Below, piece by piece: positions 5,980 to 52,106 of a stretch of 64,000 nt of DNA. Position 1 is the first letter of the stretch; every line of letters starts with the position of its first letter. The position numbers and the translations under genes are program-made. Origin of the DNA: a virus. A model generated the notes under the pieces. That model was not told the DNA's origin and did no database searches. It worked only from the letters and a program-made list of their open reading frames with translations. The stretch is taken from positions 2,022 to 66,021 of IMG/VR virus record IMGVR_UViG_3300022744_000001. One strand, 5' to 3'.

Positions 5980-6161
5980 AACCATGGAAAAGATTCGAAA
6001 CCCCTACGCGAGCGCAATGGCCCGCCGCTATGGGAAAACCACCAAGGTCATGAAAGACCGCCGCAAAGGACGCGGAGGTTCACGGAACAAGAAGCGGGAG
6101 ATCCTCCACGAGGCAGATCAGTAATCCTGTTGTCCCCTATCTTGAACGGGAAGGTTTCACC

Positions 6162-6491: not shown

Positions 6492-6510
6492 CCCCGGTGT
6501 AGCCGTACTC

Positions 6511-6903
6511 ATGTGGTACGGAAGATACGACGACAGCGACCTGGCCCCGGCTCTCCCCAAACCGTGCGCCTGCGACAACGGGCCACCTTCCATCCCGCCC
6601 GACGTCGCCATGGCTCTCTGGGCCGGAAACGACGAACCCTCCATGACCATCTGGGCGCAACCCGATCCCTACGAAGGGCAGTGGCACACGGGACACCCAC
6701 GCGCGGAGTACCTATTCCTTCCCACGGCCTCCAAGGAGGAAAAGGAACTCGAGCAAGCCATCTTCAATGCCTTAGACGCGGGGCTCGATGCCATGTTCCT
6801 ACTGAAAGCGACCCAGGACGTCGTCCAGAAGTGGGCAAGGGCTCACGTCATAAAGGGCGAGCGCCTTGCCGACTGGGAACGTCACGTCAGCTCGGATCAG
6901 TAG
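6511..6903 (+). CDS. hypothetical protein (130 aa)
   Basis: ORF with ordinary composition. It competes with a longer Arg-rich shadow ORF in another frame. Confidence 0.4.
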   Translation: MWYGRYDDSDLAPALPKPCACDNGPPSIPPDVAMALWAGNDEPSMTIWAQPDPYEGQWHTGHPRAEYLFLPTASKEEKELEQAIFNALDAGLDAMFLLKATQDVVQKWARAHVIKGERLADWERHVSSDQ

Positions 6904-7349: not shown

Positions 7350-7682
7350 ATGGCGTGGCTCGGCCCCCGATCGGGCATCCAGTGGTATGTGTACCTTCTC
7401 CGCTCCGAGAAGATCCCCCACCTCTACACGGGCATCACCACCGACCCTGAACGACGCCTGGCCCGCCACAACAACGGCACAGGGGCGAAGTTCACTCGCG
7501 GCCGAGGCCCGTGGTCCATCGCCTACCTCGAGCCCACCATGGACCACCGGGACGCCCTCCGCCGCGAGCGCGAAATCAAAGGCTGGAGCCGAGCCGAGAA
7601 GCTCGAGCTGATCAAGCGACCTTCCGCCGACCCTGTTTCGGCCTCTGCGCCACCGGTGCGACAACGTTCTCGAACTCGGTAA
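7350..7682 (+). CDS. GIY-YIG nuclease domain protein (UPF0213/Slx1-like small endonuclease)
   Basis: YVYLLRSEKIPHLYTGITTDPERRLARHNNGTGAKFT matches the GIY-YIG core with the conserved Arg and Asn. The internal ATG of ORF 6513..7682 was used. Confidence 0.6.
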   Translation: MAWLGPRSGIQWYVYLLRSEKIPHLYTGITTDPERRLARHNNGTGAKFTRGRGPWSIAYLEPTMDHRDALRREREIKGWSRAEKLELIKRPSADPVSASAPPVRQRSRTR

Positions 7683-19324: not shown

Positions 19325-19381
19325 GTTGTGCACGGTGTGCGGTTGTACTGAGTGTGCAAGCGGCCCGGTGTAGAGGGCTCC

Positions 19382-20095
19382 ATGCACCAACATGGCGTCC
19401 TCTCCGGCTACGAGATCGAGAAACAGCTCAAGGAGGGGCGAATCCAAATCGACCCCTTCAACCCTGACCACGTGAACCCCGCCTCCGTGGACCTCACTCT
19501 GGGGGATCAGGTTCTGGTCTACCGAGACGCGATCGACTACGAGGAGTACGACGTTACGGACGGGAGCGAGATCATCCCCTCCTTGGACAAGAACGTTCTC
19601 GACAGTCGGCAACCCAATCGCACGGTCAGCTACAAGATCGGGCCTCGCGGCTGGGTCCTCAAGCCGGGCGTCGGGTACCTCATGCACACGGCTGAGCGCG
19701 TCTTCACAGAGAGCTTTGTCCCCGTCCTCGATGGCAAGTCCTCGGTAGGGCGGCTCTTCATCAAGGTGCACGAGACGGCCGGGTATGGCGACCCAGGCTT
19801 CAACGGCCAGTACACACTCGAGGTGACCTCCGTTTACCCGGTCCGGGTCTACACGGGCATGCGCATCTGCCAGGTTCGCTTCCACTCGATTGCAGGCCAG
19901 CCGAAGCTCTACCAAGGGCACTACCGGAACGATACGGCCAAGGGTGCCGTGGCCTCCAGGTCCTGGCAGCAGTTCGAGGAGATGGACGAGGCAGCAGTGG
20001 AGCGGCGAATGCTCGAGTGCAAAGAGGACCATGAGGCCGTCCGCCGCTCCGGCTCCGATGACGGCTGCCTCAAGTGCGGCTACTACGCGAAGTAA
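19382..20095 (+). CDS. dcd: dCTP deaminase (Dcd-like) with C-terminal Cys-containing extension
   Basis: SGYEIEKQLKEGRIQIDPF, NPASVDLTLG and VGRLFIKVHETAGYGDPGFNGQYTLEV match dCTP deaminase/dUTPase-fold motifs. Confidence 0.8.
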   Translation: MHQHGVLSGYEIEKQLKEGRIQIDPFNPDHVNPASVDLTLGDQVLVYRDAIDYEEYDVTDGSEIIPSLDKNVLDSRQPNRTVSYKIGPRGWVLKPGVGYLMHTAERVFTESFVPVLDGKSSVGRLFIKVHETAGYGDPGFNGQYTLEVTSVYPVRVYTGMRICQVRFHSIAGQPKLYQGHYRNDTAKGAVASRSWQQFEEMDEAAVERRMLECKEDHEAVRRSGSDDGCLKCGYYAK

Positions 20096-20116
20096 TCTTT
20101 CGTTGCCCCGCCTCGA

Positions 20117-20593
20117 GTGATGATCCTTCGTGTCGCCCAAGCCTACCGAGCGGAGTTCGAACAGATGCTCGCCGAGGGGCGAAAGCTCCGCCGGGACTAC
20201 TACGTCCCGGAACGCTACCGGGCTGAGCCTCAGCCCCCGGGGCTCTACGAAGGCCAGCTCCTCGGCCGCAAGATCAAGCGCATGGACGGCGAATGGGTGC
20301 GCGACAACATCGACGTTGACTTCGTCGAAGGTGGGAACCCCTCCCGCTACTCCTATGTGCCCCTCGACGAGCTTTGGGTCGAGATGTCCCTCTCCCCCGT
20401 GGGTCAGACTGCAACCCTTCTCCATGAGGCAGTTGAATGCCACCTCATGGAGAACTACCAGCTGTCCTACAGCAATGCCCATGACATTGCAGCGTTTTTC
20501 GAGTCTCGCTACCGGCAAGACCCCAACACGCCCCTCGATGTTGCGACGGCCGCCGCTGTAACAGAGGCTTTAGAAACGTTAGGTTTGGTGTAA
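20117..20593 (+). CDS. hypothetical protein (158 aa)
   Basis: Clean ORF. No motif was recognised. Confidence 0.5.
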   Translation: MMILRVAQAYRAEFEQMLAEGRKLRRDYYVPERYRAEPQPPGLYEGQLLGRKIKRMDGEWVRDNIDVDFVEGGNPSRYSYVPLDELWVEMSLSPVGQTATLLHEAVECHLMENYQLSYSNAHDIAAFFESRYRQDPNTPLDVATAAAVTEALETLGLV

Positions 20594-20602
20594 CCTAGCG
20601 CC

Positions 20603-21220
20603 ATGGATCTCTCTGAAACGATTTCTGCCCTTCAACCCGGCGAGATGAAAACCATCATTTCTGCGACGGTTGAGAAACCCAAGCGTGACCTGCAACTTCT
20701 CCCGCTGGTCTACCATCCGAGCCCAATCCTCAACGAGGAGTGCTTTGAGATCCCTGCGGTGACCGAGGACATCGTTTGGTTGGCCAAGGACATGCTCTTC
20801 ACGATGATGAAGCGGCATGGGGTGGGGCTCGCGGCGCCCCAGGTGGGCCACAGCCTTCGACTGTTCGTGGTGGACGTCGGCTGGGTTCGGGGAATCGAGC
20901 ACTCGGACCCCAAGGTGTTCATCAACCCCAGGGTAACTCCCGCGAGCCCGAGCCAGGACAGGGCTCCGGCCGAAATCTCCTCTACCGAGGGCTGCCTCTC
21001 CTTCCCTGGCACGAAGGCTACTTTGCCGCGCTACGAGGTCGTCCACGTTCATGCCCTGGGCATCGACGGCAGGCCATTTGAGCTGTACGCGGACGAGCTT
21101 CTAGGACGCGTGGTGCAGCACGAGAACGACCACTTGAACGGGGTTACCATCCACCCGCACCTCGGTCGCATGCAGCGCCAAGAACTCCGGAAGGGGCTCG
21201 AGAAGGCCCGCCGCGGCTAA
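20603..21220 (+). CDS. def: peptide deformylase
   Basis: All three PDF motifs are present: GVGLAAPQVG, EGCLSFPG and QHENDHLNG. Confidence 0.85.
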   Translation: MDLSETISALQPGEMKTIISATVEKPKRDLQLLPLVYHPSPILNEECFEIPAVTEDIVWLAKDMLFTMMKRHGVGLAAPQVGHSLRLFVVDVGWVRGIEHSDPKVFINPRVTPASPSQDRAPAEISSTEGCLSFPGTKATLPRYEVVHVHALGIDGRPFELYADELLGRVVQHENDHLNGVTIHPHLGRMQRQELRKGLEKARRG

Positions 21221-21241
21221 ACTACCTGTCGCCCGCCCTGG

Positions 21242-22999
21242 GTGATGGACCTCGTACTCCGCGTCGCCTCTCACTTCCTTGTCGGCGGTTTCATCCCCGA
21301 CAAGTTCTTCAAGGCCAAGACGGCCGAGCTGAAGAAGCTCATGCTCACCCCGGCCGGGATGCCCGACGTGACCTCGTTCGAGATTCACGACCGGGTCATC
21401 CCCTTCTACAAGAAGTTCGAGCAGGAGTTGCTCGAGTTCGGGGTGCACCGCTTCGCGGAGGAGTCCATCCGCAGTCGGTTCGAAACCATGCGAGGCATGG
21501 CGGAGAAGATCGCCGAGGGGGCAGCCGGGTTCCACAAGGCCACGAACCAGTTCCCTCCTCGCGGCCCCAAGACCGAAGTCCTGACATCCCTCGAGATGGC
21601 GGTACGAGGCGCCTACGGGGAGAAGGTCAAATATCTCGGGCACGCCTTCAAAACCCAGTGGTTCATCGACGGTGGCCAGCTCGAGGCTTTGGCTGACCGC
21701 CTTTTGAAGAAGGCCACGCCCGCAGAGCTTGGCGCCTTGGAGAGCGCTTCGAACGACGACTTCCGCTCCTCTGTTCTTGACCTCAAGTACGGGTTCTTGA
21801 AGCGAGTGAACGCGGAAGCCGCGGCGCTCAAGCTGGTCAAGAAGACCAAGATCACCTGGGACCCCTTCCAGCGCATCGAGATACTTCGTGCTGCGCTCGA
21901 GGCCAACTACTCGGACAAAGCGGACATGGCGCCTACCGAGTTCGACCTGTTCGGAATGAAGATCGTGGTCAACGACCAATCCGTGGACCAGGACCAGGTC
22001 AATAAGTACGTCGGCTACCTCAAGGAAGCCTACGCTCGCCTCAAGGCCAAGGGGTTTGCCAAGGTCTGGTATGGCACCGTTCTCATCGACTGCCAGCAGT
22101 GCGGGGGCGTCAACTACAACGACGGGGGCGAGGTCGGGGGCCACTACAACATCGGGAAAGACTGGGTGAAGATCTTCGAACGCCCCGGTCCTTTCATCGT
22201 GAAGTTGATGGCTCACGAGCTGGGGCACCGGCACTGGTTCAAGGGCATGTCCTCGGAGCAGCGAGCCCGGTTCAACTCCCTGGTCCGCACGCACGAGGGT
22301 CGAAACCCAAAGAAGGCTGAGGCCAAACTCATCCCTCTCTCCACCGTGGTGAAGCGTCGAAGCACCCTGGACGAAGTTCTCAACCCGCTTGCCAAGGCTC
22401 TCGACCAAGCACTCAAAGACGCTGAAGCACAACGGTTCGACAAGGAGAAGGCCAGGGAGCTTCGGTCTTTCGTCCGCGGGGACGCCCAAGCCCTTTCGAG
22501 GCTGTACCAGTTGGGCTCGAACATGGTCGAGCGGAACGGGGACCTCTACCAAAGCCGTGAGTCACTCCAGCTCGGAACCGAGTTCAGCAAGCTGCTCATG
22601 GATGTGGATGCCGAGTTGGTAGACAAGCTCAACGAGATCCTCAACACGAGCTTGGACTTCAATGAGTCAATCGAGTTCTGGGCGGGCCACTTCCTGACCC
22701 AAACAAAGAAGCTGCACGAGCTGGGCGAGCAGTACCTCATGGCCACGATGAAGGGGCACAACGAGACTGCCAAAATCGAGGCAGAGAAAGCCAAAACCGA
22801 GATCGACACGGCTTGGGGTGCCGACCCCCGCCAAGTCATGCCTGTCTCGGACTACGGCTCATCCAACATCGATGAGGCATTCGCCGAGGTGTTCATGAAG
22901 TACGTCATGGGCGACGACATGAATCGAGACCAGCTCGAGTCGTTCAAGTCTGTGTTCGCCTCGACTGAGGAGTACGACGACCACGACTTCGACGACTAG
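21242..22999 (+). CDS. large hypothetical protein with HExxH zincin-like motif (585 aa)
   Basis: The motif LMAHELGHRHWF is present. The gene ends on TAG. Confidence 0.6.
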   Translation: MMDLVLRVASHFLVGGFIPDKFFKAKTAELKKLMLTPAGMPDVTSFEIHDRVIPFYKKFEQELLEFGVHRFAEESIRSRFETMRGMAEKIAEGAAGFHKATNQFPPRGPKTEVLTSLEMAVRGAYGEKVKYLGHAFKTQWFIDGGQLEALADRLLKKATPAELGALESASNDDFRSSVLDLKYGFLKRVNAEAAALKLVKKTKITWDPFQRIEILRAALEANYSDKADMAPTEFDLFGMKIVVNDQSVDQDQVNKYVGYLKEAYARLKAKGFAKVWYGTVLIDCQQCGGVNYNDGGEVGGHYNIGKDWVKIFERPGPFIVKLMAHELGHRHWFKGMSSEQRARFNSLVRTHEGRNPKKAEAKLIPLSTVVKRRSTLDEVLNPLAKALDQALKDAEAQRFDKEKARELRSFVRGDAQALSRLYQLGSNMVERNGDLYQSRESLQLGTEFSKLLMDVDAELVDKLNEILNTSLDFNESIEFWAGHFLTQTKKLHELGEQYLMATMKGHNETAKIEAEKAKTEIDTAWGADPRQVMPVSDYGSSNIDEAFAEVFMKYVMGDDMNRDQLESFKSVFASTEEYDDHDFDD

Positions 23000-24189: not shown

Positions 24190-27100
24190 TCAGGCCGGTA
24201 CATGGGGCATGATCCACCAGTTGGTCCCGTCGCAAGCTGCATGGAATCCTTGGCGCCCAGATGCCCCGAATGCAACACCGGTAGTGGCCAAAGTTCCGTT
24301 GATGTTTCCGGAGCTGGATTTCAATGTGAAAGTGTTGCTATCCGTGGTGGTCTTCATGAGTGTAAGAGAGTGTCCACCGCTACTAGCAGGTGCAGGCAGC
24401 TGAATGTTTGCGATAGCTCCGCCTGATGTGTCGATCATAGTAAACGCGCCAGAAGACAGAGTTCCGCTGCCTCCGAGTGAGTCTACCTTTGAAAGAATGA
24501 TGGCTCCATACCCAACGCCGAACCCGGACCCGGGCCGACGCCCCACATAGAGGTCTACTGAGTTTGTGGTTAGAACTGCGGTGCCTGCTGCTGGGGCGAT
24601 AACCACTGCGCCGTGGTCGCCAGAGCCAGCAGGGGCGCCCGTGGTCAGCGTGATGTCTCCGCCGTTCTGGTTGCCGCCGACAGCCGAAGTTGCTGTGATG
24701 TTGACCGCGCCGCCGACCCCAGAAGTGGCTGTGGTGCCCGCAGAGATATTTACGGTGCCACCAACACCATTGGCGTTGTTGGCGCCTCGGACCGTGACCG
24801 AGCCAGCGGTTCCAGACCCGGTTGAGACACCGCCTGCGATAGTGATGCTTCCACCATTTTGGTTGCTTCCAGCAGCTGCACCCGCGGTAACGACGATGGC
24901 GCCACCTGTGCCTGAACCGCTAGCAGCACCAGCAGTGATAGTGACTTGGCCGCCAGCCCCCGAGGTTGAACCGCCAGCCCCCGCAAGGAGCAGAGCAGTA
25001 CCTCCGCTACCTGTAGCGCCTCCAGCTCCCGCACGAAGGGACGCGCCACCTCCCCCAGAAGAGCCTCGGCTGCTGCCTGCGGTGAAACTGATATCTCCAC
25101 CGGCGCCGGACGTAGCAGAAGCATTCGCGCTGCCTCCTGTAGCGGTGAAGCTACCGCCGTTGCCGCTACCAGTGCCGCCGGTACCTCCAGTGAAGGTAAA
25201 GGAACCGCCGACACCAGTTTGACCAGCTCCACTCGAGGCCGCTCCCGCGTTGAATGTGAAGCTTCCGCCGTTGTTGGCGCTCAAGCTTCCACCGCTGCCG
25301 CCAGTGAAAGTGATCGAACCGCCAGAGCCGCTCGATGTGCTGCCACAAGTGAGGGCGATGGAGCCACCAGCACCCGATGTTGAAGCGCCCGCAGTGATTT
25401 GAAGGGCTCCGCCAGCACCAGAGGTAGAACCGCCCACGCCTGAGAACAGCTGGAGAACAGCACCTGCTCCCGTTGCGCCCGAGGTACCGGGTTGAACCAG
25501 AAGGGCGCCCGCCGCCGAAGCACCGAAACCATCACCGGTTCGAATCGTGGTGGTTCCGCCAACCGCCGACGAACCGCCAGAGACGGCATCCGCCCCCTTG
25601 ATGGTTACAGAGCCTGCTGTGCCGCCGTTAGTCGGGGAGCCACCCGTGATGGTGATTGCACCACCAGCTTGAGTGGTACCTACGCCCGCTCCGCCCGTGA
25701 TGGAGAGGGCTCCGCCAGCACCAGACGTCGTAGCTGCACCACCCTGGAGAGAAAGGGTGCCTCCAGCTCCAGAAGTGGCACCACCAGGACCGCCTTTGAC
25801 GACTACCGAGCCGCCCGTGTTGGTACCTCCAGGAGTGCCGCCTTGGATGGTGACTGTGCCACCGTTACCCGCGGCAAGAGAGGTGCCTCCGTTGATGTTG
25901 AGGGCACCACCAGCACCGGTCAGGCCCCCGGTACCTCCCTGTGCTGTCAGGGAGTACCCAGTTCCAGCTCCGACAAGATCGGCAGGTTTGATAGTCGGGG
26001 AGGTGCCAGTGGTAACAACCACCCCGCTATCAATCAATGCTGTAGCCGCCGAGCTACTCCAGACGGGGACCCCGTTGGTGTTCCCAGAACCTGGGCCTGT
26101 GACCCCGCCCCCACCTCCGGTTCCTCCAAGAGGGAGCACTCGCCACGCGTTGCTGGTGTAGTCCCGCACTAGCAACGCCGCAGAACCACCAGTCAGGGAG
26201 TAATCGGTTGCCGAAGGGCAAATAAGCCGATTGAATGCAGACGATCCAGCATCTTGGTGTTTGAGGGTCAGTGTCGTACTGGAGCGGTTTACAAGGAAAC
26301 GCTGTGAGTAGGACAGGTCGAGGTCAGTGTCGCGGAAGAAGCCCGTAACGGTTGCACCCGAAGTGACCGCATCAAAAAAGATCGTCCGCGCAAAACGCCA
26401 CTTGTAGATGTCTCCAAGCTTGTAGTCGTTGTTGGTGCCGCTGACCGAGACCGACGCGGTCTGCTCGATGGAGGGGTAAGTGAAAAGGTTGTCACTCGTC
26501 CCGCCAAAGTTGTTGTTCGCGAACTTCGAAGCGTTGTTGTTCGTTGCGTCGGTAGTGACAGGATTGTTGAACAACACGATTGAGGCCGGGGCACCGTCGT
26601 CAACCAAGTACCCAGAGGTTCCGACGTTCGCGTTGAAGATCTGAAGGTACCCTCCGTTGGTAATGAATGGGTACCCTGTGATACCTGCCAACCAAGTGCT
26701 TGCTGGGAATTCACAATAGACGTCGAGCGATCCGCCATTGCCTGCATTAATCCACGAAGACGTTGCGGCCCCATCGGTGTAGAGCTGGGAAAATCTCCCC
26801 AAGGTAATCGAGGGGTAATCGCTGGGGCTCATCGTATAGAGGGCCCCAGACGTCTTGTGGTTGACCATCACTACGTTTTCGATTCGACGAGGCAGCTTAA
26901 CGATGACCGCGGGGTCATAGAAGTTCATGACCGCTGTGCCGAGAGGATCTGTTGACGAGCGGCCAACGATCTCACAGTCCGTGAAGTCAAAGGAGTTGCT
27001 ACCGCTAAGGGGTACATTCGTAAGCAGCGTGATTCGACACGGGCCAGGGTGCCTTGCTGCAAGAAGCAGAGCCATGTCGTTATACGTGTTGCCCGAAGGT

Positions 27101-27192
27101 GAGGCTCCCGAGTCAAACACGAAGTCAGCCACCACGATTTCCTCGAAGGTGTGCCCAGCGGCGCTCGACAAAACTGGATAGCGATTCGACAT
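24190..27192 (-). CDS. glycine-rich repetitive tail-fibre-like protein (1000 aa)
   Basis: N-terminal 350 aa is a globular, beta-rich domain. This is followed by about 450 aa of GGxGG/TGGTG repeats (not collagen Gly-X-Y) and a C-terminal domain ending CDGTNWWIMPHVPA. Confidence 0.75.
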   Translation of the reverse strand: MSNRYPVLSSAAGHTFEEIVVADFVFDSGASPSGNTYNDMALLLAARHPGPCRITLLTNVPLSGSNSFDFTDCEIVGRSSTDPLGTAVMNFYDPAVIVKLPRRIENVVMVNHKTSGALYTMSPSDYPSITLGRFSQLYTDGAATSSWINAGNGGSLDVYCEFPASTWLAGITGYPFITNGGYLQIFNANVGTSGYLVDDGAPASIVLFNNPVTTDATNNNASKFANNNFGGTSDNLFTYPSIEQTASVSVSGTNNDYKLGDIYKWRFARTIFFDAVTSGATVTGFFRDTDLDLSYSQRFLVNRSSTTLTLKHQDAGSSAFNRLICPSATDYSLTGGSAALLVRDYTSNAWRVLPLGGTGGGGGVTGPGSGNTNGVPVWSSSAATALIDSGVVVTTGTSPTIKPADLVGAGTGYSLTAQGGTGGLTGAGGALNINGGTSLAAGNGGTVTIQGGTPGGTNTGGSVVVKGGPGGATSGAGGTLSLQGGAATTSGAGGALSITGGAGVGTTQAGGAITITGGSPTNGGTAGSVTIKGADAVSGGSSAVGGTTTIRTGDGFGASAAGALLVQPGTSGATGAGAVLQLFSGVGGSTSGAGGALQITAGASTSGAGGSIALTCGSTSSGSGGSITFTGGSGGSLSANNGGSFTFNAGAASSGAGQTGVGGSFTFTGGTGGTGSGNGGSFTATGGSANASATSGAGGDISFTAGSSRGSSGGGGASLRAGAGGATGSGGTALLLAGAGGSTSGAGGQVTITAGAASGSGTGGAIVVTAGAAAGSNQNGGSITIAGGVSTGSGTAGSVTVRGANNANGVGGTVNISAGTTATSGVGGAVNITATSAVGGNQNGGDITLTTGAPAGSGDHGAVVIAPAAGTAVLTTNSVDLYVGRRPGSGFGVGYGAIILSKVDSLGGSGTLSSGAFTMIDTSGGAIANIQLPAPASSGGHSLTLMKTTTDSNTFTLKSSSGNINGTLATTGVAFGASGRQGFHAACDGTNWWIMPHVPA

Positions 27193-30874: not shown

Positions 30875-31156
30875 ATGCATGCAGGGGAAGCAAATCCGGT
30901 AGGTCGTGAACCGGCCATTGAGCGGGCGATACGCTTCTCCTTTGGCAGGGATGGCTCTCGCGCACAAGCAGCACTCCCAAGGCTTTTTGGTGATGGTCCG
31001 GGCCCAGAGGACTCGGACAGTGCAGCCCTCGACGGTCAGGTTGGAGAGGTAGGAGGTCCCGGGGAGGAACTCCTTCTTGTTCGTGATTGAGACCACAGAG
31101 TAGGTTTGGCACAGAACCGGTGTCAGTGTCACCGATGCGTGATGCCCCCGCCCCAC
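30857..31156 (-). CDS. Cys-rich hypothetical protein (99 aa)
   Basis: ORF with a CCLC...CFPC pattern. It overlaps the ARH start. Reality uncertain. Confidence 0.3.
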   Translation of the reverse strand: MGRGHHASVTLTPVLCQTYSVVSITNKKEFLPGTSYLSNLTVEGCTVRVLWARTITKKPWECCLCARAIPAKGEAYRPLNGRFTTYRICFPCMHKDESG

Positions 31157-32049
31157 TTCTTGGTCAAGCCATCGCTGATGCCCTGGGTATGCCGTTCGAG
31201 TTGTGTGGTCCCGAAGATCCCAAGTTGAAGGACTGGGATGGGCAGACCTACCACTCGAGCGAGTACCACAAGCTCATGCCAGGGCAGTGGTCCGACGACA
31301 CGATGATGGCCAAGCTCCTGGCCGAAAGCCTTCTCCAGGTGGGCGGGTATGACCCGGAGAACGCAGCCAAACGCTACCTGGGTTGGTACAAGAGCGGGGA
31401 CCACCGGGGGATGGGGACGGCGACCAGGACCGCCCTCGGTCGCCTGGACGAGGGCAAGGATTGGTCGGAGTCCGGAGTCGAGAACGCCCAGGGGAACGGG
31501 ACCGCCATGAGGGCGATCCCTCTCGGGGTTTTCTTCCGGAACCGTCTCGACCTCCTCGTCGAGGCTGCAAGCTTGGACTCTCACATCACCCATCGGTCGG
31601 ACGAGGCTGAGGAGGGGGCGATCGCAATCGCCCTGGCTGCCGCATACCTCTACCGTGGCCTCCCGAAGGATGAGCTTCCAGAGGCTATCTCGAGGCGGCT
31701 CAAAGACGGCCCCATCAAGACCGGAGTCATGAAGTGCGAGTTCTACCTTCGCACCGGCGGAGTCTCGGTTGGGGAAGCACTCCGAGTCATTGGCACGAAA
31801 CCCCACGTGGTCCAGACCGTGCCCGCTGCCCTGGCCGCGTTCCTTTTGTCCAAGACCTACCTGGAGGCTGTCCAAGCTGCGATTCGGGCCGGGGGCGATA
31901 CGGACACCACAGCCGCCATCGCCGGTGGCCTGGCGGGCATCTACTACGGTCGCCAAGCCATCCCCGCGGACCTCATCCCTCCGCTCGAGGCCGCAGACGC
32001 CCTCAGTGGGCTCGACTTCCAACTCAACACCCCTGCCCGTGAACTCTGA
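31135..32049 (+). CDS. ADP-ribosylglycohydrolase (ARH/DraG family)
   Basis: GQAIADALGMPFE, GQWSDDT, GNGTAMR and GGDTDTTAAIAGGLAGIYYG are characteristic ARH motifs. Confidence 0.85.
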   Translation: MRDAPAPLLGQAIADALGMPFELCGPEDPKLKDWDGQTYHSSEYHKLMPGQWSDDTMMAKLLAESLLQVGGYDPENAAKRYLGWYKSGDHRGMGTATRTALGRLDEGKDWSESGVENAQGNGTAMRAIPLGVFFRNRLDLLVEAASLDSHITHRSDEAEEGAIAIALAAAYLYRGLPKDELPEAISRRLKDGPIKTGVMKCEFYLRTGGVSVGEALRVIGTKPHVVQTVPAALAAFLLSKTYLEAVQAAIRAGGDTDTTAAIAGGLAGIYYGRQAIPADLIPPLEAADALSGLDFQLNTPAREL

Positions 32050-32207: not shown

Positions 32208-33047
32208 ATGCTGGAAGACAACAAGCTGAGGATTTTCGAGAGGTTCTCGGTAGACAAGGAGCTTCCGAAGTTCCAAAAGCCGAAGGGTGAGAACGTAGAA
32301 CTCGTTCGAGCGGACGGGTCCACGGACCACGCCGTGATTTACGAGTTTGCGATCGACCTGGTCAATAGAGGCTGGACAGAGGGCATCGAAATCACGGAAG
32401 CCGTCGCGGACCGGATTACGTTGCGGGGCCGAGTCAAAGGGTTTCGTGGCTGGCTCCGGAAGCTGCTCCATTGGGTCACCCAGAGGCCGAGCATCACCAT
32501 CCCTCAGTTCTTCACCCTCGTGAAGGGTTCCGTGAAGGACCTCGAGATCGTGGAGGCGCGTGCCAAGGGGTACGAGGAGGCCATCTCCAACGCCCGCAAG
32601 TTCGGCCAGAAAGCCCTCGTTGAGGAGCTGACACAGAACCTGGTTGCGGTCCGGCTCGAGGCGCACTTGGTCACGATGGGGCTGACCAAGTACCTGACCG
32701 AGGACAAGCTCGTCGAATTCGTGAAGCTGTGCCCGAAGGGGCTCCGGCTCGACTGGATCGCGAACTTTGGGCGTCGCATCCCCACAGAGCTGCTCGAGCG
32801 CAAGCTCGCCTGCGACGAACGGTTCCTCTTCGACAACTACGTCATCCTCCACTACGACCCCAAAGGCAAGAGCTGGAAGGAAACGGAAGCCGAGAAGGCC
32901 GCCCGCAAAGACCCGATCCTCTTCGGGGTCATGAAGGGGCGCCGCCAGCTCTACTACCTCGGGGACTGGGTCGATGAGCTTTGCGACCTCACGCTCGACC
33001 AGATTGCAGATACGATTGGGAAGAGTGCGATCGGGGAGCTGAAATAA
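32208..33047 (+). CDS. hypothetical protein (279 aa)
   Basis: Clean ORF upstream of the HNH gene. No motif was recognised. Confidence 0.5.
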   Translation: MLEDNKLRIFERFSVDKELPKFQKPKGENVELVRADGSTDHAVIYEFAIDLVNRGWTEGIEITEAVADRITLRGRVKGFRGWLRKLLHWVTQRPSITIPQFFTLVKGSVKDLEIVEARAKGYEEAISNARKFGQKALVEELTQNLVAVRLEAHLVTMGLTKYLTEDKLVEFVKLCPKGLRLDWIANFGRRIPTELLERKLACDERFLFDNYVILHYDPKGKSWKETEAEKAARKDPILFGVMKGRRQLYYLGDWVDELCDLTLDQIADTIGKSAIGELK

Positions 33048-33051: not shown

Positions 33052-33729
33052 GTGGACAGTAGCGCAGAAGAGTTTGAGCAGATAGTGCGCGAGAGTTTAT
33101 CCGCTGCACAAGCCCTACGAAAACTGGACCGGGCTACCGTGGGGTCCAACTACGACTGGGTGCGTCGGGAGGTTCAACGGTTTGGGCTCGACACATCTCA
33201 CTGGGGAAGAGCTGGTGCTCGCAATACAACCCCGAACCTCGATGAGGTTTTCATTGAGAATGGTGCCTACTCAACAGGTCTTGTTAAGACGATCATTCTT
33301 CGTGAACGTTTACTCCCGGAGCTGTGTGCTGAGTGTGGATTAGGACCCTCCTGGAGGGGTAAGAAATTAGTCCTCCGCCTTGACCACAAAAACGGGAAAC
33401 GAAGTGATCACCGGCTCGGAAACTTGCGTTTTCTGTGTCCGAACTGCGACTCTCAAACAGAGACATTTTGCGGTCGCAACAAACGTCTCCCAGCCAAGCT
33501 GTGTAAATGCGGGGTGGCAATAGGGCAGCAGTCCGCAGCTTGCAGGTCGTGCACGGCAAAAAGCAGAAAACCAACAACGAAAATCGTTTGGCCTCCATTC
33601 GAGGAAGTGCAGGAAAGGGTCAAAAACACCTCCTTCCTTGCCACAGCCAAACATCTTGGTGTATCAGATAATGCAGTTCGGAAGTTTTTACGCTCCCGTG
33701 CCCGAGTGGTTGAAGGGGCAGGATTCTAA
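33052..33729 (+). CDS. HNH homing endonuclease
   Basis: LDHKNGKRSDHRLGNLRFLCPNCDSQ is an HNH motif. GC content is locally lower. The stop codon lies inside the downstream tRNA. Confidence 0.8.
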   Translation: MDSSAEEFEQIVRESLSAAQALRKLDRATVGSNYDWVRREVQRFGLDTSHWGRAGARNTTPNLDEVFIENGAYSTGLVKTIILRERLLPELCAECGLGPSWRGKKLVLRLDHKNGKRSDHRLGNLRFLCPNCDSQTETFCGRNKRLPAKLCKCGVAIGQQSAACRSCTAKSRKPTTKIVWPPFEEVQERVKNTSFLATAKHLGVSDNAVRKFLRSRARVVEGAGF

Positions 33730-33783
33730 ATCCTTGGGGCCGCAAGGCCCACGCCGCAGGTTCGAACCCTGCCGGGAGCGCCA
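33692..33783 (+). tRNA. class II (Ser-like) tRNA with anticodon CUA, a putative amber suppressor; CCA encoded
   Basis: GCTCCCGTGCCCGAGTGGTTGAAGGGGCAGGATTCTAAATCCTTGGGGCCGCAAGGCCCACGCCGCAGGTTCGAACCCTGCCGGGAGCGCCA. The acceptor stem is 7 bp and perfect, the D-arm is Ser-like (GCCCGAGTGGTTGAAGGG), the anticodon loop is TTCTAAA, there is a long variable hairpin and a canonical T-arm. Confidence 0.5.
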
Positions 33784-33784: not shown

Positions 33785-34111
33785 TCAAGAGCGTAAAGCG
33801 AGAGGAAGCCGCTGAACAAGTCGTTTTGCGGCGGGCTCGAGCGCGATGGCGGTCACCTCGTTGTCTCGGTCCGGCTCCCGAAACAAGCTGACCCTGAACC
33901 CTCGACGGGTCGCATCCTCCGCGAGACGAGTCAGGGAAGGCTCATCAGGGCTCTCGAGGAGAGCGAGGTAGTTCGACTGCTCGAACCACTCCCGCTCGAC
34001 CTCCGGGTGCTCCGCGACGAACCCTCGCATGGCGTGAGCTGCTTGGACAGCTTGCGCGCCAAGAGGGAGGTCGCTTCGGACAATGAGGTAGAGTTTGTCA
34101 CCCATCCTCAT
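33785..34111 (-). CDS. peptidyl-tRNA hydrolase, Pth2-like
   Basis: KLYLIVRSDLPLGAQAVQAAHA and a Pth2-like length (108 aa). The stop codon is 1 nt after the tRNA CCA. Confidence 0.55.
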   Translation of the reverse strand: MRMGDKLYLIVRSDLPLGAQAVQAAHAMRGFVAEHPEVEREWFEQSNYLALLESPDEPSLTRLAEDATRRGFRVSLFREPDRDNEVTAIALEPAAKRLVQRLPLALRS

Positions 34112-34535
34112 CGTCGGTACCTTCCTCGTCTTCGTCGTCGCTCAGGTGCAACCCAACCCTGTGAATGACCTCCTCTGGAATCCCGGCCGCCCGGAGCTTC
34201 CCGTCCCAGTCAGCGTAGGGGCGGTCCCCGCCACCCCACTTGCGCTCGCCCACGAAGAACATGGGAGGGTCACTGTGGATTTTCCCGTGAGGGGTCTCAA
34301 CGTAGGGCCAGATCTCCAAGGGCGAGTCGTTGCAGCACCCGCAGTTGTGCCGCATGTCGAACTTGGTCACCTGGCTGTTCACTGAGGCTGAGCAGTAGGC
34401 GACCTTGTTCCAGCGGCCGACATGCTTGCGCAGATCAGGGTAGAGTTCGGCCAGTTTGGCCAACCTCTCCGCTTCCTGGTCCTTTGCCCGGGCTTCCCCC
34501 CGGGCTTGTTGGATCTCTTCAGCGATGGTACCCAT
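34098..34535 (-). CDS. hypothetical protein with acidic C-terminal tail
   Basis: Clean ORF overlapping the Pth2 start. Confidence 0.45.
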   Translation of the reverse strand: MGTIAEEIQQARGEARAKDQEAERLAKLAELYPDLRKHVGRWNKVAYCSASVNSQVTKFDMRHNCGCCNDSPLEIWPYVETPHGKIHSDPPMFFVGERKWGGGDRPYADWDGKLRAAGIPEEVIHRVGLHLSDDEDEEGTDDEDG

Positions 34536-34538
34536 GGC

Positions 34539-34991
34539 TCAGGCCGCCTTCCGCTCAAACTTCGGGCGGAGACCCGCAAGCCACATACCGATGTCGTCCT
34601 CGGAGATAGCGGCTCCGCCCCCGAAGCTCTGGAGAAGGCTGTGGAGCGCTCGAGGGCTCAAGACCTCCGCGGTCGTTCGCTCGATTTGGACATACTCGAG
34701 GCCCCGGAGCATTCCGAGCAGCACCAGGTGCAGTCGGATCCAGTACCGGCCATCCCGCTTCTGGTCCCACAGGCGAGACCGGTCGTAACCGGTCTCGGGG
34801 CGGCGGTAGGGTTTGAGGGCTCGTTTGCCGTTGACCCTCCTACCATCCTCACCCCGCTGGGAGCGGAGGGTGGCGATGGCGTCGGCCGACCCGGGCGTCC
34901 AAGCCAGCTCTTGGAGCTGGCGGCGGATCCCCATCTGGGCGTCGGTCAGGGTCTTGAGTTCAGTGCGCAGCTTCTTGATAGTTTCCTTCAT
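34539..34991 (-). CDS. hypothetical protein (150 aa)
   Basis: Clean ORF. Confidence 0.45.
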   Translation of the reverse strand: MKETIKKLRTELKTLTDAQMGIRRQLQELAWTPGSADAIATLRSQRGEDGRRVNGKRALKPYRRPETGYDRSRLWDQKRDGRYWIRLHLVLLGMLRGLEYVQIERTTAEVLSPRALHSLLQSFGGGAAISEDDIGMWLAGLRPKFERKAA

Positions 34992-37355: not shown

Positions 37356-37838
37356 ATGCGACCTGCTACGCGAGAGGGTTGGAAGATCATCTCTATCACG
37401 GCTCACCGAACGTTGACCGGGCAAGACCGAACGTTCATCCGAGCTGGGATGAAGCTGCTGGTACAAAACCCCACCGTCGATGCGATCTACGTCGGGGGCG
37501 CTCGAGGGGGAGATACGATCGCGCTCCAAGCCGCCGCAGAGTTCCGAAAGGGCTCGAGGCCGCAGTTGGTTGTCGTCTGTCCCGACACAGAGGCGGCCCA
37601 ACCTTTTCAGGCCCGCCAATGGTTTCACTTGGCTGACGAGGTCATCGAGCTTGGAAACCCCATCACTCGAGAGGACGGCTTTGAGTCCTACCGCATCCGC
37701 AACAAGTACCTTGTTGATCACTGCACCACTCTCGTCGCCTTCTACAACGGAGACAAAGACACGGGCACCGGGCATGCCGTCCAGTATGCCGAGTCTCTCG
37801 GTGTTGTTGTCCGTACAGTCCCGATTGTCGGAAGGTAA
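37356..37838 (+). CDS. DprA/Smf-like SLOG Rossmann-fold protein (domain only)
   Basis: GGARGGDTIALQAA, LVVVCPD, RNKYLVDHCTTLVAF and GTGHAVQYAESLGV parallel DprA motifs. Confidence 0.6.
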   Translation: MRPATREGWKIISITAHRTLTGQDRTFIRAGMKLLVQNPTVDAIYVGGARGGDTIALQAAAEFRKGSRPQLVVVCPDTEAAQPFQARQWFHLADEVIELGNPITREDGFESYRIRNKYLVDHCTTLVAFYNGDKDTGTGHAVQYAESLGVVVRTVPIVGR

Positions 37839-37841
37839 AAC

Positions 37842-38243
37842 ATGCTCACAGCTATCCTGCTCCTCTGCATCGCCATCGTTGCCATGGTGGGCGTTCTGAT
37901 CTTCGAAACGGCCAACCTCCGAGGGGCGTTCCACGAGATGCAGAAAGCTCTCCAAGACGCCGTTCGAACGAGTGAAGAACTCGACGCGAAGGAGGACGAA
38001 GAGGGGGATCAGCTCGAGATTGAATGGCGAGACAGGTTCAACGAGATGCAAGACACGCTGAACCGCCTCGAGTTGAACCTGGGGCGGGTCAATCAGCGTG
38101 TGGCCCGGCTACAAGCCAAGTCAAAGGCGGGCAGCACGAAGAAGAAGGCCAAGTTCGACCTCATCCAAGGGGGCCAGAAGAACCCCCAAGAGGAGCGTCC
38201 GCAGGTGATTCAGCTTCACCCTGAGCCTCGAGACCCAAGCTGA
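37842..38243 (+). CDS. membrane-anchored coiled-coil protein (133 aa)
   Basis: N-terminal transmembrane helix LLLCIAIVAMVGVLIF followed by a charged helical region. Confidence 0.5.
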   Translation: MLTAILLLCIAIVAMVGVLIFETANLRGAFHEMQKALQDAVRTSEELDAKEDEEGDQLEIEWRDRFNEMQDTLNRLELNLGRVNQRVARLQAKSKAGSTKKKAKFDLIQGGQKNPQEERPQVIQLHPEPRDPS

Positions 38244-41981: not shown

Positions 41982-43628
41982 CTAAGTGAATCGGTGCCCG
42001 CCGGACTCCTTGGAGTCGTACATGGCGGCATCCGCGATCCGTACAAGGCTCTCAGGCTCACGCCCGTGCGTTGGGAACAAGGCCAGACCGATGCTGGCGC
42101 GAACCCCAACCTCTTCTCCGGAGGGCAGCTCGATAGGCTCCCCTACCAAGTTGAGGATCTTCGTCGCCACTGGGCCTGCATCGCCTTCTTGCGCAAGGTC
42201 GTCCAGCACAACGACGTACTCGTCGCCCCCTAGTCTGGCCACGACGTCGGTTCTTCGCACGCAAGCTCGGAGCCGGGCCGCGACCTCCTTGAGCACGATG
42301 TCTCCAGCGTCATGGCCGTGAGTGTCATTGACCTCTTTGAAGCCGTCGAGGTCGATGAACAGGACTGCGAGCTTGCTGTCGTACTGCTCTGCTCGAGCGA
42401 GCTTCGAAGCCAACGTGTTCATCAGCGTCGCCCGGTTCTGGAGCCCCGTGAGCGGGTCAGTATGGGCTGCTTTGATGAGGGCTGCCTCGGTCCTCTTTCG
42501 CTCAGTTACGTCACGGGCCACAACATAGAGCTTCCCCTCCACGTGAGCAGGGAAGTGCCAGGAGAGCCATCGCCACGTCCCATCTTTGCACCGGGCCCTG
42601 CACTCGAACTTCACCCCGTCGTAACCGCTGGCGAGCTTTGAGAGCTGCTCCTGCATGTCCATCCGGTCATCCGGGTGGAGCAGGTCGAAGATGGGGCGGC
42701 AAAGCAGCTCGTCCTCGGAGAAGCCCAGGACGCGAGTGAACGAGGGGTTCACTCGGATGAAGTAGCCGTCAAGCCGTGCGACACAGATGAGGTCAAGGCT
42801 CACGGTGAAGAGTCGATCGCGCTCTTCCTCGGCTCGTTTGCGGTCCGTGACGTCGGTGGCGGCCCAAAGGTAGCCAACGAGGTCTCCGGTGTCTTCTCGC
42901 ATGACCACCGTCTTCGCGCTGACCCAGAGAATGGATCCGTCGGGCCGAAGAAATCGGAACTCATGCTCGAACGAGAGGCCGAGGTCTGTGAGCCGCCGCC
43001 ACGCCATCATGACCGCTCGTCGGTCGTCTGGGTGCACAGCTCGAGTCCAGCCTTGCCCGTAGCACTCCTCGAGAGACAGGCCGCACATCTCCGACCAGGT
43101 TCGGTTCACAAACCCGCACCGGCCATGCTCGTTGGTCATGAGGGTGCCCGCGGGGGTCTCGTGGATGAACGCTCGGAGCTTGCTCTCGCTCTCGCGAAGG
43201 GCCCGCTCCATGTTCTTGGTGGCAGAGATGTCCCGGAAGGTGAGTAGAGCCCCGTGCGGTTTCTGCCCAGGCTTCTGAAGCGGGCGCGTGTTCGTGCTGA
43301 CCCAAACGGCAGTCCCATTCGGGCGAGCAACCTCCAGCACAACACTCGAGAGGGCGATGCCCGTGCGCAGGGACACTACGGCCGGGTGGTCATCCTTCGA
43401 AAGGAGAGACCCGTCCTCGCATGAAATACGAGGCGCATCGGACATATACTTTCCGATCAGGTCCTTCTCTGTAACCCCGAGGATCCGGGCCGCACAAGGG
43501 TTCGCCTCAACGATCTGTTCGGTTGCATCGATGACGAAGACCCCCTCCTCCATTGATTCGATCAAGGAGCGGTAGAATGCCTCATCTAACTGCAATCCCG
43601 CACTTTTGGTTACGTCTGAGTTCGGCAT
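41982..43628 (-). CDS. PAS-PAS-PAS-GGDEF diguanylate cyclase-like protein (GGDEY variant)
   Basis: Three PAS-like blocks are followed by LFIDLDGFKEVND and RLGGDEYVVVL. The gene ends on TAG. Confidence 0.8.
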   Translation of the reverse strand: MPNSDVTKSAGLQLDEAFYRSLIESMEEGVFVIDATEQIVEANPCAARILGVTEKDLIGKYMSDAPRISCEDGSLLSKDDHPAVVSLRTGIALSSVVLEVARPNGTAVWVSTNTRPLQKPGQKPHGALLTFRDISATKNMERALRESESKLRAFIHETPAGTLMTNEHGRCGFVNRTWSEMCGLSLEECYGQGWTRAVHPDDRRAVMMAWRRLTDLGLSFEHEFRFLRPDGSILWVSAKTVVMREDTGDLVGYLWAATDVTDRKRAEEERDRLFTVSLDLICVARLDGYFIRVNPSFTRVLGFSEDELLCRPIFDLLHPDDRMDMQEQLSKLASGYDGVKFECRARCKDGTWRWLSWHFPAHVEGKLYVVARDVTERKRTEAALIKAAHTDPLTGLQNRATLMNTLASKLARAEQYDSKLAVLFIDLDGFKEVNDTHGHDAGDIVLKEVAARLRACVRRTDVVARLGGDEYVVVLDDLAQEGDAGPVATKILNLVGEPIELPSGEEVGVRASIGLALFPTHGREPESLVRIADAAMYDSKESGGHRFT

Positions 43629-51189: not shown

Positions 51190-51758
51190 CGGTGCCCACT
51201 AAAGACACCGATGGTTTGACAATTTGCTGGTTTTTCTCACCAGTAGTCCCACCGGATGTGGCGGGGGTAGCGGTCGGGGATACGCTCGAACTGGCGGGTT
51301 CGGAGGGCGTCGTGGACGAGACGCCGAGCGCTTTTCCAGTTCATCCGTTGTGCCCACCGGCAGTAACCGATGGTCATAACGCTGTAGCCTCGCAGCTTCT
51401 TATGCCTTGAACGCTTCTTTCGACGGTAGTTCGTGTGCACTCGTCCCTCGTAGGGCGCCAAAGGGGCGTCCTAACGGGGCTTCGTGTCGGTCGTAGATGG
51501 TCGGCATGGGTCGTCTACACCATAGATGGTTTCGCCGCTGGCGACAAACTCTTCCGCCCACCGCACGAGAACCTGGTCCTCAACGTAGTAAAGGGCGGTC
51601 CCGTCGTTGCCCTTCTGCTGGTTGATGCTGTTCGAGATGAGCTGACCCAGGCGTAAATGAGGGCTGCTCACCCAGGCCGCGTAGAGGCGGTTGATGACTT
51701 CCTTCTTCTGTTCTGGTGTAAAGGCTCTATCTTGCATGACTACTTCCTGGAGGGTCGC

Positions 51759-52106
51759 ATGGCATTTCCGAAAAGCAAACGCAGAAAAATCACAGTGGAT
51801 GGGGTCACCTATCACTACGTGATCGTTCCCGCCGCCGCGGGCCTCACGCGCACCATGACCTTAAGAGTGCAACGGGTCGCCGACGGGGAGCACTTCGTGT
51901 TCAGGGCGATCGACACAACTTACGACCCGGGAAAAGCGGTACGCGAGTTCGTGAGCCCCATCTCGGGGGAAGTGTCGAACGACTCCAATGGGGTCACTCC
52001 GAAGGATGTGGCCGCGGCGATTCGTGGCGAACGCATCTCCGGTGTGTGGCAGCTCAGCCCGGTCACCGGTCAAAAGCAGCCTGCATCAATGGGCGGAGTT
52101 TGTTGA
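51759..52106 (+). CDS. hypothetical protein (115 aa)
   Basis: Internal ATG. Confidence 0.4.
   Translation: MAFPKSKRRKITVDGVTYHYVIVPAAAGLTRTMTLRVQRVADGEHFVFRAIDTTYDPGKAVREFVSPISGEVSNDSNGVTPKDVAAAIRGERISGVWQLSPVTGQKQPASMGGVC

Follow-up and report, generated by a model that had tools for sequence, protein, structure and literature searches.

A class II amber-suppressor-type tRNA gene beside a divergent Pth2-like gene in a ~448-kb phage genome

Introduction

Suppressor tRNAs in phages with the standard genetic code have been reported and left unexplained: Xanthomonas phage XacN1 has two tRNAs with anticodon CUA and Agrobacterium phage Atu_ph07 has one with UCA, while the cognate stop codon remains in frequent use and a target of the suppression could not be found. 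In this work we analyse 64,000 nt of viral DNA (positions 2,022 to 66,021 of the IMG/VR record IMGVR_UViG_3300022744_000001; from here on the window), with ~60% GC throughout and belonging to a phage contig of 448,224 bp, where a class II tRNA gene with anticodon CUA adjoins the gene of a small protein resembling the peptidyl-tRNA hydrolase Pth2. Like the window phage, XacN1 and Atu_ph07 are large (385–490 kb), GC-rich and of standard code, with many tRNAs and with Pth genes somewhere in the genome. The papers describing them do not connect the suppressor with Pth, however, and the XacN1 suppressors lie in the terminal repeats. The single match of the Pth2-like query in XacN1 is a weak domain in a 279-aa open reading frame (ORF) with no tRNA within 5 kb, whereas the window tRNA is of class II, with a Ser-like body.

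The cluster C mycobacteriophages (Bixzunavirus, Myrnavirus; IkeLoa, Phabba) have a homologous Pth2-like protein (42–45% identity) with a CUA tRNA 130–250 nt downstream, in high-GC genomes deposited with ordinary gene annotation; in IkeLoa the annotated ‘peptidyl tRNA hydrolase’ is followed by ‘tRNA-Pyl(cta)’. Their arrangement differs from that of the window in that the pair sits inside a large tRNA array with a transfer-messenger RNA (tmRNA), and in that the CUA tRNAs are short, of class I and with unusual arms (30.8 bits against Rfam in Phabba). We found no paper commenting on the pairing of Pth and tRNA in this cluster. As these phages are cultured and genetically tractable, the function of the tRNA and the Pth2-like protein is directly testable in them.

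In the recoded phages (crAss-like, Lak, Agate, Jade), the CUA tRNA comes from the phage genome and the charging synthetase from the host, and some relatives with the standard code also carry suppressors (Borges et al.). Such phages are low in GC and depleted of the reassigned stop, with CUA or UCA tRNAs and with Gln or Trp as the amino acid, whereas TAG ends ~22% of the window genes and the body of the window tRNA is Ser-like. The code change module of Borges et al. consists of tRNA, synthetase and release factor, without a hydrolase (the words ‘hydrolase’, ‘peptidyl’ and ‘Pth’ are all absent from the paper). Lak-B7 and the TAG-recoded 735-kb phage genome LR756501.1 nevertheless have a Pth2-like gene next to stop-reading tRNAs. 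PTH2 in jumbo phages was read by Iyer et al. (2021) as a means of ribosome rescue after tRNA cleavage, with no mention of suppressors.

What is new here is the Ser-like class II body in a high-GC genome of standard code and, above all, its partnership with a divergent Pth2-like gene. That standard-code suppressors travel with a small hydrolase offers a first handle on their function. The interpretation that we favour, and to which we give a probability of roughly 0.62, is that of a functional amber-reading phage tRNA that would bring about partial read-through and that is paired with a Pth2-like hydrolase. The sequence read amounts to ~70 kb of the 448 kb (the 64-kb window and 7.2 kb of left flank), and the tests of stop usage and ORF merging refer to the window.

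Results and Discussion

The tRNA gene

ARAGORN finds 12 tRNAs in the window, among them a single one of 92 nt with exactly the ends given in Table 1 and with anticodon CTA at tRNA position 35. The Rfam model RF00005 matches positions 33692–33780 over its entire length (model positions 1–71 of 71) with 52 bits, against a gathering score of 29 (E=2.8e-8), and the cloverleaf is the minimum-free-energy fold of the molecule (−44.4 kcal/mol). The original prediction, made from the letters of the sequence, had proposed a class II tRNA with anticodon CUA at this place; both programs and the fold agree with it, and each of the parts that it had named can be found in the sequence. The acceptor stem GCUCCCG/CGGGAGC forms 7/7 pairs; U8 and G9 are present; the D arm GCCCGAGUGGUUGAAGGG has the stem CCC/GGG with the loop G-AGUGGUUGAA; the 20-nt variable region folds into a 5-bp hairpin (GGGCC-GCAA-GGCCC); the T arm reads GCAGG-UUCGAAC-CCUGC; the discriminator is G, and CCA is encoded. 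The only pair to fail is C27.U43, uppermost in the anticodon stem CAGGA/UCCUU. The anticodon loop UUCUAAA is of 7 nt and holds U33, CUA at 34–36 and the run A36-A37-A38, thus combining, by sequence and by ARAGORN, the U33, CUA and purine-37 of an amber suppressor tRNA; a loop with U33, CUA, A37 and A38 is of the kind that decodes efficiently. Since the region spanning the HNH endonuclease gene upstream (see below), the tRNA and the Pth2-like gene is identical over 851 nt between contig k141_47206 of ENA ERZ27252002 and the Logan assembly of SRR7614061, an assembly artefact is an unlikely source of the locus, although the two assemblies may share one sample. Altogether, this looks like a functional tRNA gene of a ~448-kb phage, predicted to read the amber stop UAG in vivo.

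The label ‘Pyl’ that ARAGORN attaches to this tRNA is the name it gives to any CUA anticodon. Apart from that shared anticodon, the molecule resembles tRNA-Pyl in none of the features by which the latter is recognised: tRNA-Pyl has a variable loop of 3 nt, a shortened D loop without G18G19 and an anticodon stem of 6 bp, whereas the window tRNA has a 20-nt variable arm, a D loop containing GG and a standard TTCGAAC T loop, and no pyl genes turned up among the proteins scanned. We give a pyrrolysine tRNA practically no chance. A selenocysteine tRNA would have anticodon UCA and an 8/5 geometry of acceptor and T stem, and here we find CUA and 7/5.

The evidence on the amino acid comes mainly from the D arm. 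The exact motif GCCCGAGTGGTTGAAGGG occurs in 105 tRNAs of the 120 bacterial genome stretches returned by the scan, 104 of which are tRNA-Ser (GGA, UGA, CGA), and the CCA-encoding tRNAs with this motif have G73 without exception (61/61). The other marks of tRNA-Ser are there too, namely a variable-arm stem of at least 4 bp (5 bp in this case), a Ser-type D arm (3-bp stem, C11-G24, GGYYGAAGG loop) and G73, and hence the motif, the long arm and the discriminator agree with the Ser-like class II body originally proposed. Tyr and Leu tRNAs depend on A73. Seryl-tRNA synthetase (SerRS) recognises the long variable arm and the acceptor end and not the anticodon, so that with a Ser-like body SerRS would probably charge the tRNA, and serine seems to us a somewhat better than even guess for the amino acid it carries. 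The serine-inserting amber suppressors E. coli supD (serU, CGA to CUA) and psu1+ of phage T4 likewise have a class II tRNA-Ser body with anticodon CUA, ignored by SerRS; these are laboratory or spontaneous mutants of tRNA-Ser, whereas the window tRNA belongs to a naturally conserved lineage with a non-canonical acceptor (C2-G71, U3-A70). No tRNA-Ser was seen in the sequence read.

The closest single match to the window tRNA (73%) is an 87-nt tRNA of class II shape in Stenotrophomonas maltophilia E77 (NZ_RAUX01000004.1, ~570-587; L049), with a Ser-type D arm, anticodon CGU (Thr) and discriminator A, which could be a mis-decoding or mobile-element tRNA.

A search with the Pth2-like protein, together with a degenerate tRNA pattern, revealed a family of homologous class II tRNAs in other large contigs of huge phages (L127, L129, L131, L133, L135 and L136; further members in L149, L156, L178 and L223). 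Two more loci (L132, L134) that matched the pattern were rejected as degenerate 5′ fragments and not tRNAs. In an alignment of 7 sequences with a mean column identity of 78%, 99.4% of the cells of the five helices are paired and 16/25 pairs show compensatory changes, values that 0/500 shuffles reach, and sliding the 3′ partners by 1–3 columns lets the pairing drop to 29–55%. The anticodon loop keeps the form Y-U-YUA-A-A, with CUA in six sequences and UUA in one. The helix of the variable arm is 100% paired with 4/5 pairs compensatory, and such co-variation of the long arm argues for selection on recognition by a synthetase specific for class II tRNAs.

These patterns suggest that the tRNA is a selected gene and not an accident, and selection on suppressor tRNAs would rule out accident as their explanation. 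The contrary view, that of a redundant tRNA-Ser copy in which one mutation of the anticodon (CGA to CUA) was tolerated or left the tRNA non-functional, has in its favour that a single base change suffices and that the phage has at least 30 tRNAs, but it is contradicted by the diverged homologues, which keep CUA or UUA and preserve all stems by compensatory changes, and by the recurrence of the position next to Pth2 in ~100 loci. Nor was a parent with a sense anticodon identified, as searches of the viral and genome collections for exact matches to the DNA of the anticodon arm, whether the anticodon was prescribed or left open, returned nothing. We therefore hold neutral decay to be extremely improbable.

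Pairing with the Pth2-like gene

The original prediction also had the Pth2-like gene end 1 nt after the CCA of the tRNA, and this is where the ORF ends (Table 1). Its 108-aa product matches PF01981 with 44.4 bits, against the Pfam cut-off of 23, and has low sequence similarity to Pth2 proteins of solved structure (1q7s, E=1e-4). An AlphaFold model built with 46 homologues (pLDDT 96.6) retrieves chains of the Pth2 family as its top 13 Foldseek matches in the Protein Data Bank (TM-scores of 0.74–0.79, with 3erj, 1q7s, 2zv3 and 1xty among them). The window protein thus shares with Pth2/PTRH2 (Bit1) and archaeal Pth2 the fold, the AxQ..HA motif and a C-terminal strand containing T, and differs in being shorter and in its active-site loops (see below). 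The motifs of its family are KLYLxVRxDLxPGxQAVQAAHA and FREPDxxNExTAIAxEP...LPLAL, with Q23, H26, F77, E79, P80, D81 and T87 invariant in the 46 homologues.

All of the first relatives reached through the Pth2-like protein have a stop-reading tRNA beside Pth2 (Table 1), and among deposited phages the pairing occurs in IkeLoa, Phabba, LR756500.1, LR756501.1 and LR745208.1 (uncultured huge phages) and Lak-B7. The search also works in reverse, since loci found by the tRNA pattern (L131, L133) have an adjoining Pth2-like gene. A CUA, UUA or UCA tRNA lies within 2.2 kb of Pth2 in 18 of 24 pooled loci, where the near regions (≤2.2 kb, 111 kb of sequence) contain 20 suppressors and 25 other tRNAs and the far ones (230 kb) 1 and 35 (odds ratio 28, p=9e-6). 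In a larger test, 78 loci were retrieved from IMG/VR by means of the Pth2 alignment alone, and in 49 of them such a tRNA lies within 2.2 kb. The suppressor is the nearest tRNA in 47/76 of the loci with any tRNA, almost always downstream and on the same strand, and 54 suppressors and 62 other tRNAs near Pth2 compare with 4 and 82 far from it (odds ratio 18, p=6e-12; as in the smaller set, loci are counted and not independent evolutionary events). Rfam supports nearly all of the Pth2-adjacent tRNAs checked (L135 stays below the gathering score and L141 is a borderline case; the scan did not extend to IkeLoa).

About 17 of the remaining IMG/VR loci have tRNAs in the same place with odd anticodon loops of 6 or 8 nt that contain UUCAA or UCUA, which would bring the total to ~66/78. 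Those of L158, L160, L165-L167, L169, L171, L173, L175, L177, L179, L183-L185, L191 and L220 lie 20–1,600 nt downstream of the Pth2-like gene, and ARAGORN assigns to odd-loop tRNAs the 4-base anticodons ‘ttca’ or ‘tcta’, the 2-base ‘tc’, or ‘ttc’. They may be opal or amber decoders, possibly of quadruplets or frameshifts. In Serratia phage BF, a CUA tRNA is found 3.3 kb from Pth2.

The closest relative of the window locus, L126, shows how the pair may be renewed. Its Pth2 is 72% identical and gene order is kept on both sides, yet the slot between Pth2 and the ADP-ribosylglycohydrolase gene is a mere 110 nt long, lacks the HNH gene and holds a different tRNA (76 nt, UUA, on the opposite strand). 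Judging from this comparison, the class II CUA tRNA is part of a replacement cassette in that slot, along with the HNH and 279-aa genes, so that the tRNA was replaced whilst a stop-reader was kept. As the paired loci moreover differ in tRNA body (class I or II), anticodon, orientation and GC (28–72%), in genomes of ~150 kb to 735 kb, the pairing seems to be maintained and not merely inherited. All of this points to the tRNA and the Pth2-like hydrolase being a conserved two-part module, recurring in ~100 loci of both recoded and standard-code genomes. We found no papers linking PTH2 or peptidyl-tRNA hydrolase with suppressor tRNAs, in a literature coverage that is incomplete, so a prior report is possible.

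One of the loci, L146 (JGI 3300048091 Ga0495626_0000046, 162,660 bp, 72% GC), has its Pth2-like gene and a canonical 74-nt CUA tRNA at 6001–6790 among neighbours that look bacterial, probably actinobacterial (RtcB, PadR, esterase, ABC transporter, HisKA_3/GerE two-component and anti-sigma genes). Going by this case, cellular genomes, plasmids or prophages may carry the module too.

Table 1. Features of the window around the tRNA gene, and stop-reading tRNAs near Pth2-like genes in related loci
Feature or locus	Position	Strand	Anticodon	Basis or remark
Class II amber-suppressor-type tRNA, Ser-like body, G73, encoded CCA	33692..33783	+	CUA	ARAGORN, Rfam RF00005, fold, 7 homologues
Anticodon CTA in 7-nt loop TTCTAAA (33724-33730)	33726..33728	+	CUA	Sequence, ARAGORN, end of HNH ORF
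Pth2-like gene, 108 aa, convergent with the tRNA	33785..34111	-		PF01981; AlphaFold/Foldseek; linkage
Free-standing HNH homing-endonuclease gene	33052..33729	+		phrog_10822; foreign composition; starts of other callers 33085 or 33139
279-aa gene, phrog_10081 (annotated ‘transposase’)	32208..33047	+		PHROG; synteny with L126
ADP-ribosylglycohydrolase gene, flanking the tRNA slot opposite Pth2 (synteny anchor)	31087..32049	+		PF03747 E=7e-73; ortholog directly beside the L126 tRNA
Two genes of unknown function, 145 aa (34098-34535) and 150 aa (34539-34991), upstream of the Pth2-like gene	34098..34991	-		ORFs
L126	32 nt from Pth2		UUA	
L127	787 nt from Pth2		UUA	
L129	1.7 kb from Pth2		CUA	
L137 (453 kb, 38% GC)	34 nt from Pth2		CUA	
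L138 (490 kb)	~0.9 kb from Pth2		UCA (two)	
L146	389 nt from Pth2		CUA	
L147	506 nt from Pth2		CUA	
L148	2.0 kb from Pth2		UUA	
L149	626 nt from Pth2		CUA	

Stop codon usage

It had been suggested that a suppressor in this phage could serve programmed read-through or mark a reassigned stop, given that the PAS-GGDEF gene and the 585-aa HExxH gene end in TAG. They do, but in the sequence read neither stop-codon reassignment nor an identifiable target of programmed read-through is supported. Genes were called with a codon-usage model trained on the long ORFs of the window, and the 82 complete ones end in TGA (54), TAG (18, the ~22% given above) and TAA (10), which is ordinary usage of TAG. The in-frame stretches between TAG and the next stop score −0.20 per codon, compared to +0.27 inside genes, with a median extension of 18.5 codons. 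TAG is not rare as a terminator in the window, and no conserved gene was found there with an in-frame TAG. Reading it as sense merges just one weakly scoring pair of small ORFs (51237–51860, − strand), which was rejected, the second having a start of its own.

Alignment of the genes past their stops leads to the same answer. When window genes extended through their stops were compared by tblastn with related loci, no conserved extension and no TAG inside alignments appeared: the homologue of the PAS-GGDEF protein ends at the same residue, and those of the DUF4419 gene and of the gene at 4950–5558 stop at the aligned position. The 585-aa HExxH protein is acidic at its C-terminal end; the 51 codons of extension behind it score as neutral for coding and run across a gene on the opposite strand. 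Alignments that seemed to continue past stops (37356–38243; the DUF4419 gene; the pair at 34098–34991) came down to same-frame neighbours with their own ATG, or to insignificant BLAST extension. At 60% GC, a comparison of coding density between alternative codes tells nothing, since spurious ORFs fill everything; it works only for low-GC loci such as Lak. The cognate stop is still common in relatives as well: TAG ends 17/36 genes (47%) in L129, which has a CUA tRNA, and TGA 13/27 in L138, which has UCA. With TAG an ordinary terminator here, the effect of the tRNA would be partial read-through or modulation of termination and not a changed code. For annotation, this means that a CUA tRNA alone is no evidence of a changed genetic code.

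One may still argue for a code switch in which UAG becomes sense only in genes outside the window, of the late structural or lysis type, with the tRNA and an accessory Pth2 switching these genes on late in infection, a scheme that has been put forward for recoded gut phages. In the 735,411-bp genome LR756501.1 (L142), the largest deposited for a phage, the Pth2-like gene (4986–5309) has two in-frame TAGs (MS*IYK..., ...EFP*IYEQW) and is followed 2.1 kb downstream by two CUA tRNAs; at least in this gene the genome reads TAG as sense, and the hydrolase can be produced there only with suppression already active. Similarly, the coding density of Lak-B7 rises from 0.43 to 0.84 with TAG as sense, and the ~70 kb read here are without structural genes, whose place must be in the other ~370 kb of the contig. 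Borges et al. found recoding to be concentrated in late genes, with early genes standard, besides the suppressors of some standard-code relatives, but their survey saw only TAG to Gln and TGA to Trp and not a body of Ser type. The described recoded phages are moreover low-GC and depleted of the reassigned stop, whereas the present genome has 60% GC and TAG is a frequent true terminator both here (18/82) and in relatives, and the cluster C mycobacteriophages with the same pairing are deposited with ordinary annotation. On balance we find a code switch unlikely.

Proposed mechanism

In the favoured interpretation, that of an amber-reading tRNA causing partial read-through and paired with the hydrolase, the SerRS of the host would charge the tRNA, probably with serine, and the charged tRNA would compete with release factor 1 (RF1) at UAG, so that a fraction of the ribosomes would insert an amino acid there and read on to the next stop. 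Ribosomes that have read through could run on and stall, and their peptidyl-tRNA would drop off, tying up the scarce suppressor and other tRNAs. The Pth2-like hydrolase might then clear these by-products of suppression, recycling peptidyl-tRNAs or keeping the suppressor free, which seems to be the most economical reading of its position. Neither a release factor nor an aminoacyl-tRNA synthetase is found among the scanned proteins or in the gene tables of the locus.

A number of observations weigh against this interpretation. The lysine of the GKGK loop and the DAGxT(Q)IAPG loop of canonical human Pth2 (Bit1) are replaced in the window protein by PGxQ and (F)REPDxxNE and, with the canonical active-site loops missing, its substrate or mechanism may differ from ordinary peptidyl-tRNA hydrolysis. 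On the side of the tRNA, the acceptor pairs C2-G71 and U3-A70 differ from those of the closest cellular tRNA-Ser matches, which mostly start with GGAGAGG, and from the G2-C71 and A3-U70 that are identity elements of E. coli tRNA-Ser; the discriminator varies in the family (of 11 members, six have G and five A); and overall sequence identity, tried as a way of assigning the body, separates Ser (0.59–0.70) neither from Tyr (0.56–0.65) nor from Leu, which leaves the D-arm motif, the length of the variable arm and G73 as the basis of the Ser assignment. Searches for a sigma-70 promoter or an intrinsic terminator consensus near the tRNA found none. A benefit of suppression is not evident, no read-through target having been found in the sequence read. 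Finally, a suppressor is missing from the vicinity of the Pth2-like gene in a number of loci (L150, L152 and LR745206.1, and XacN1, RAS14 and Aeromonas phage 65.2 with their remote Pth2-like domains), and the counting of loci mentioned above bears on the strength of the linkage.

Some of these same observations could be accommodated by termination independent of release factors, in which the tRNA takes over the nascent chain at a stop, or marks the codon, and the Pth2-like enzyme cleaves that peptidyl-tRNA on or off the ribosome. Hydrolase and stop-decoder would thereby act as one machine that ends or re-routes translation, with CUA and UUA tRNAs standing in for RF1 and UCA ones for release factor 2. 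It would fit the tight and recurrent pairing of the two, whatever the body of the tRNA (class I or II) or the stop, and its persistence through changes of body, anticodon and host; it would fit equally the abundance of the cognate stop with nothing conserved behind it, and the altered loops are compatible with a specialised substrate. Yet the idea is pure inference, we know of no such mechanism, and the recoded phages with the same pairing clearly translate UAG inside genes. The co-varying long variable arm points to selection for charging, and a single CUA tRNA covers one of three stops. Both the mechanism and the notion of a single machine thus appear to us highly doubtful.

Somewhat less so, but still quite improbable, is that the pair belongs to a kit for counter-defence or ribosome rescue, where the tRNA would occupy the A site at stops, or keep ribosomes moving while toxins or abortive-infection systems of the host act against termination or cleave mRNA at stops, and Pth2 would free stalled peptidyl-tRNAs, helped by tmRNA in some phages. 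IkeLoa has its Pth gene, CUA tRNA and tmRNA in one array, RtcB lies near the module in L146, and the methylase, SNF2 helicase, ADP-ribosylglycohydrolase and NUDIX genes of the window are candidate conflict genes. A defence system acting on stop codons or release factors was not identified here, though no dedicated test of the PADLOC type was made, and this explanation accounts for the three different anticodons no better than the favoured one, even if Iyer et al. (2021) place phage PTH2 among the functions of RNA repair and ribosome rescue.

Neighbouring genes and the tRNA slot

On its upstream side, the tRNA gene shares its first 38 nt with the end of the HNH ORF, as originally noted, and the TAA stop of that ORF (33727–33729) is made of U35 and A36 of the anticodon and of A37. 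The further statement that the tRNA is fused to the HNH gene goes too far, because the overlap looks incidental. The HNH protein matches phrog_10822 (E=5e-42) over residues 4–215 of 225, almost to the end of the profile, and the tRNA begins at residue 214. With 51.9% GC, a GC content of third codon positions (GC3) of 0.51 compared to ~0.8 in its neighbours, and a negative score under the codon model of the genome, the gene is of foreign composition, and this, together with its family match and its absence from the L126 slot, is what is expected of a free-standing HNH homing endonuclease. The overlap is then a by-product of a homing endonuclease landing upstream, whose frame runs to the first stop, which is in the anticodon loop.

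This arrangement has implications for expression. Only transcription of the + strand would yield the tRNA, along with the genes of the ADP-ribosylglycohydrolase, the 279-aa protein and the HNH endonuclease. RNase P would then excise it, and the cut at the 5′ end of the tRNA would cost any HNH message its stop and its last 12 codons. A locus search with the 279-aa protein returned one unrelated low-GC locus, without tRNAs. The 145-aa and 150-aa proteins on the other side have no Pfam or PHROG matches, and homologues of the pair adjoin Pth2 in L126 and L138.

Other observations

The genes in the window are those commonly met in accessory regions of huge phages (DNA methylases, SNF2-like helicase, dCTP deaminase, peptide deformylase, NUDIX, ADP-ribosylglycohydrolase, PAS-GGDEF and DUF4419), and 8 kb around the tRNA gave no blastn match in 50,697 phage records. 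The tRNA array at 507–4239 (− strand) continues past the left edge, with at least 30 tRNAs in all. Its genes and those of L004 13548–14859 number ~19 and include duplicates (two Arg-ACG, two Asn-GUU, two Glu, two Lys, three Pro); the tRNA-Asn at 3489–3573 is unusually long (85 nt), and the ‘tRNA-Tyr’ at 4155–4239 is an ARAGORN call below the Rfam gathering score.

Four strongly coding ORFs in the same frame, each split from the next by a single TAA, follow each other at 19352–22999 (+ strand): dCTP deaminase, a 157-aa ORF, peptide deformylase and the 585-aa HExxH protein. They have their own starts 24–51 nt downstream, and two of these are preceded by a similar motif (CCCGCCTCGAGTGATG, CCCGCCCTGGGTGATG). 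The chain is probably due to chance, the frame being the same in only 8/37 adjacent same-strand pairs. A 160-aa gene (weakly DNA_processg_A/YpsA-like in relatives) and a 133-aa membrane-protein gene, arranged as stop-one codon-ATG in the same frame, are found both at 37356–38243 (+ strand) and at 5003–5815 of L126, and their conserved arrangement looks like translational coupling.

A second type of homing endonuclease is represented by a 110-aa GIY-YIG ORF (7350–7682, + strand), which overlaps the 3′ end of a 1,266-aa methylase-helicase gene on the opposite strand. The 1,000-aa ORF at 24190–27192 (− strand) has no Pfam match and atypical codon usage, and is skipped by the codon-model gene caller, whilst the gene at 41982–43628 (− strand) encodes a triple-PAS GGDEF diguanylate cyclase. 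Elsewhere in the clade, candidate anti-defence genes are found in L126 (7279–8634, a weak AcrVA2-like match) and in L127 (17925–18479, Acb5 family).

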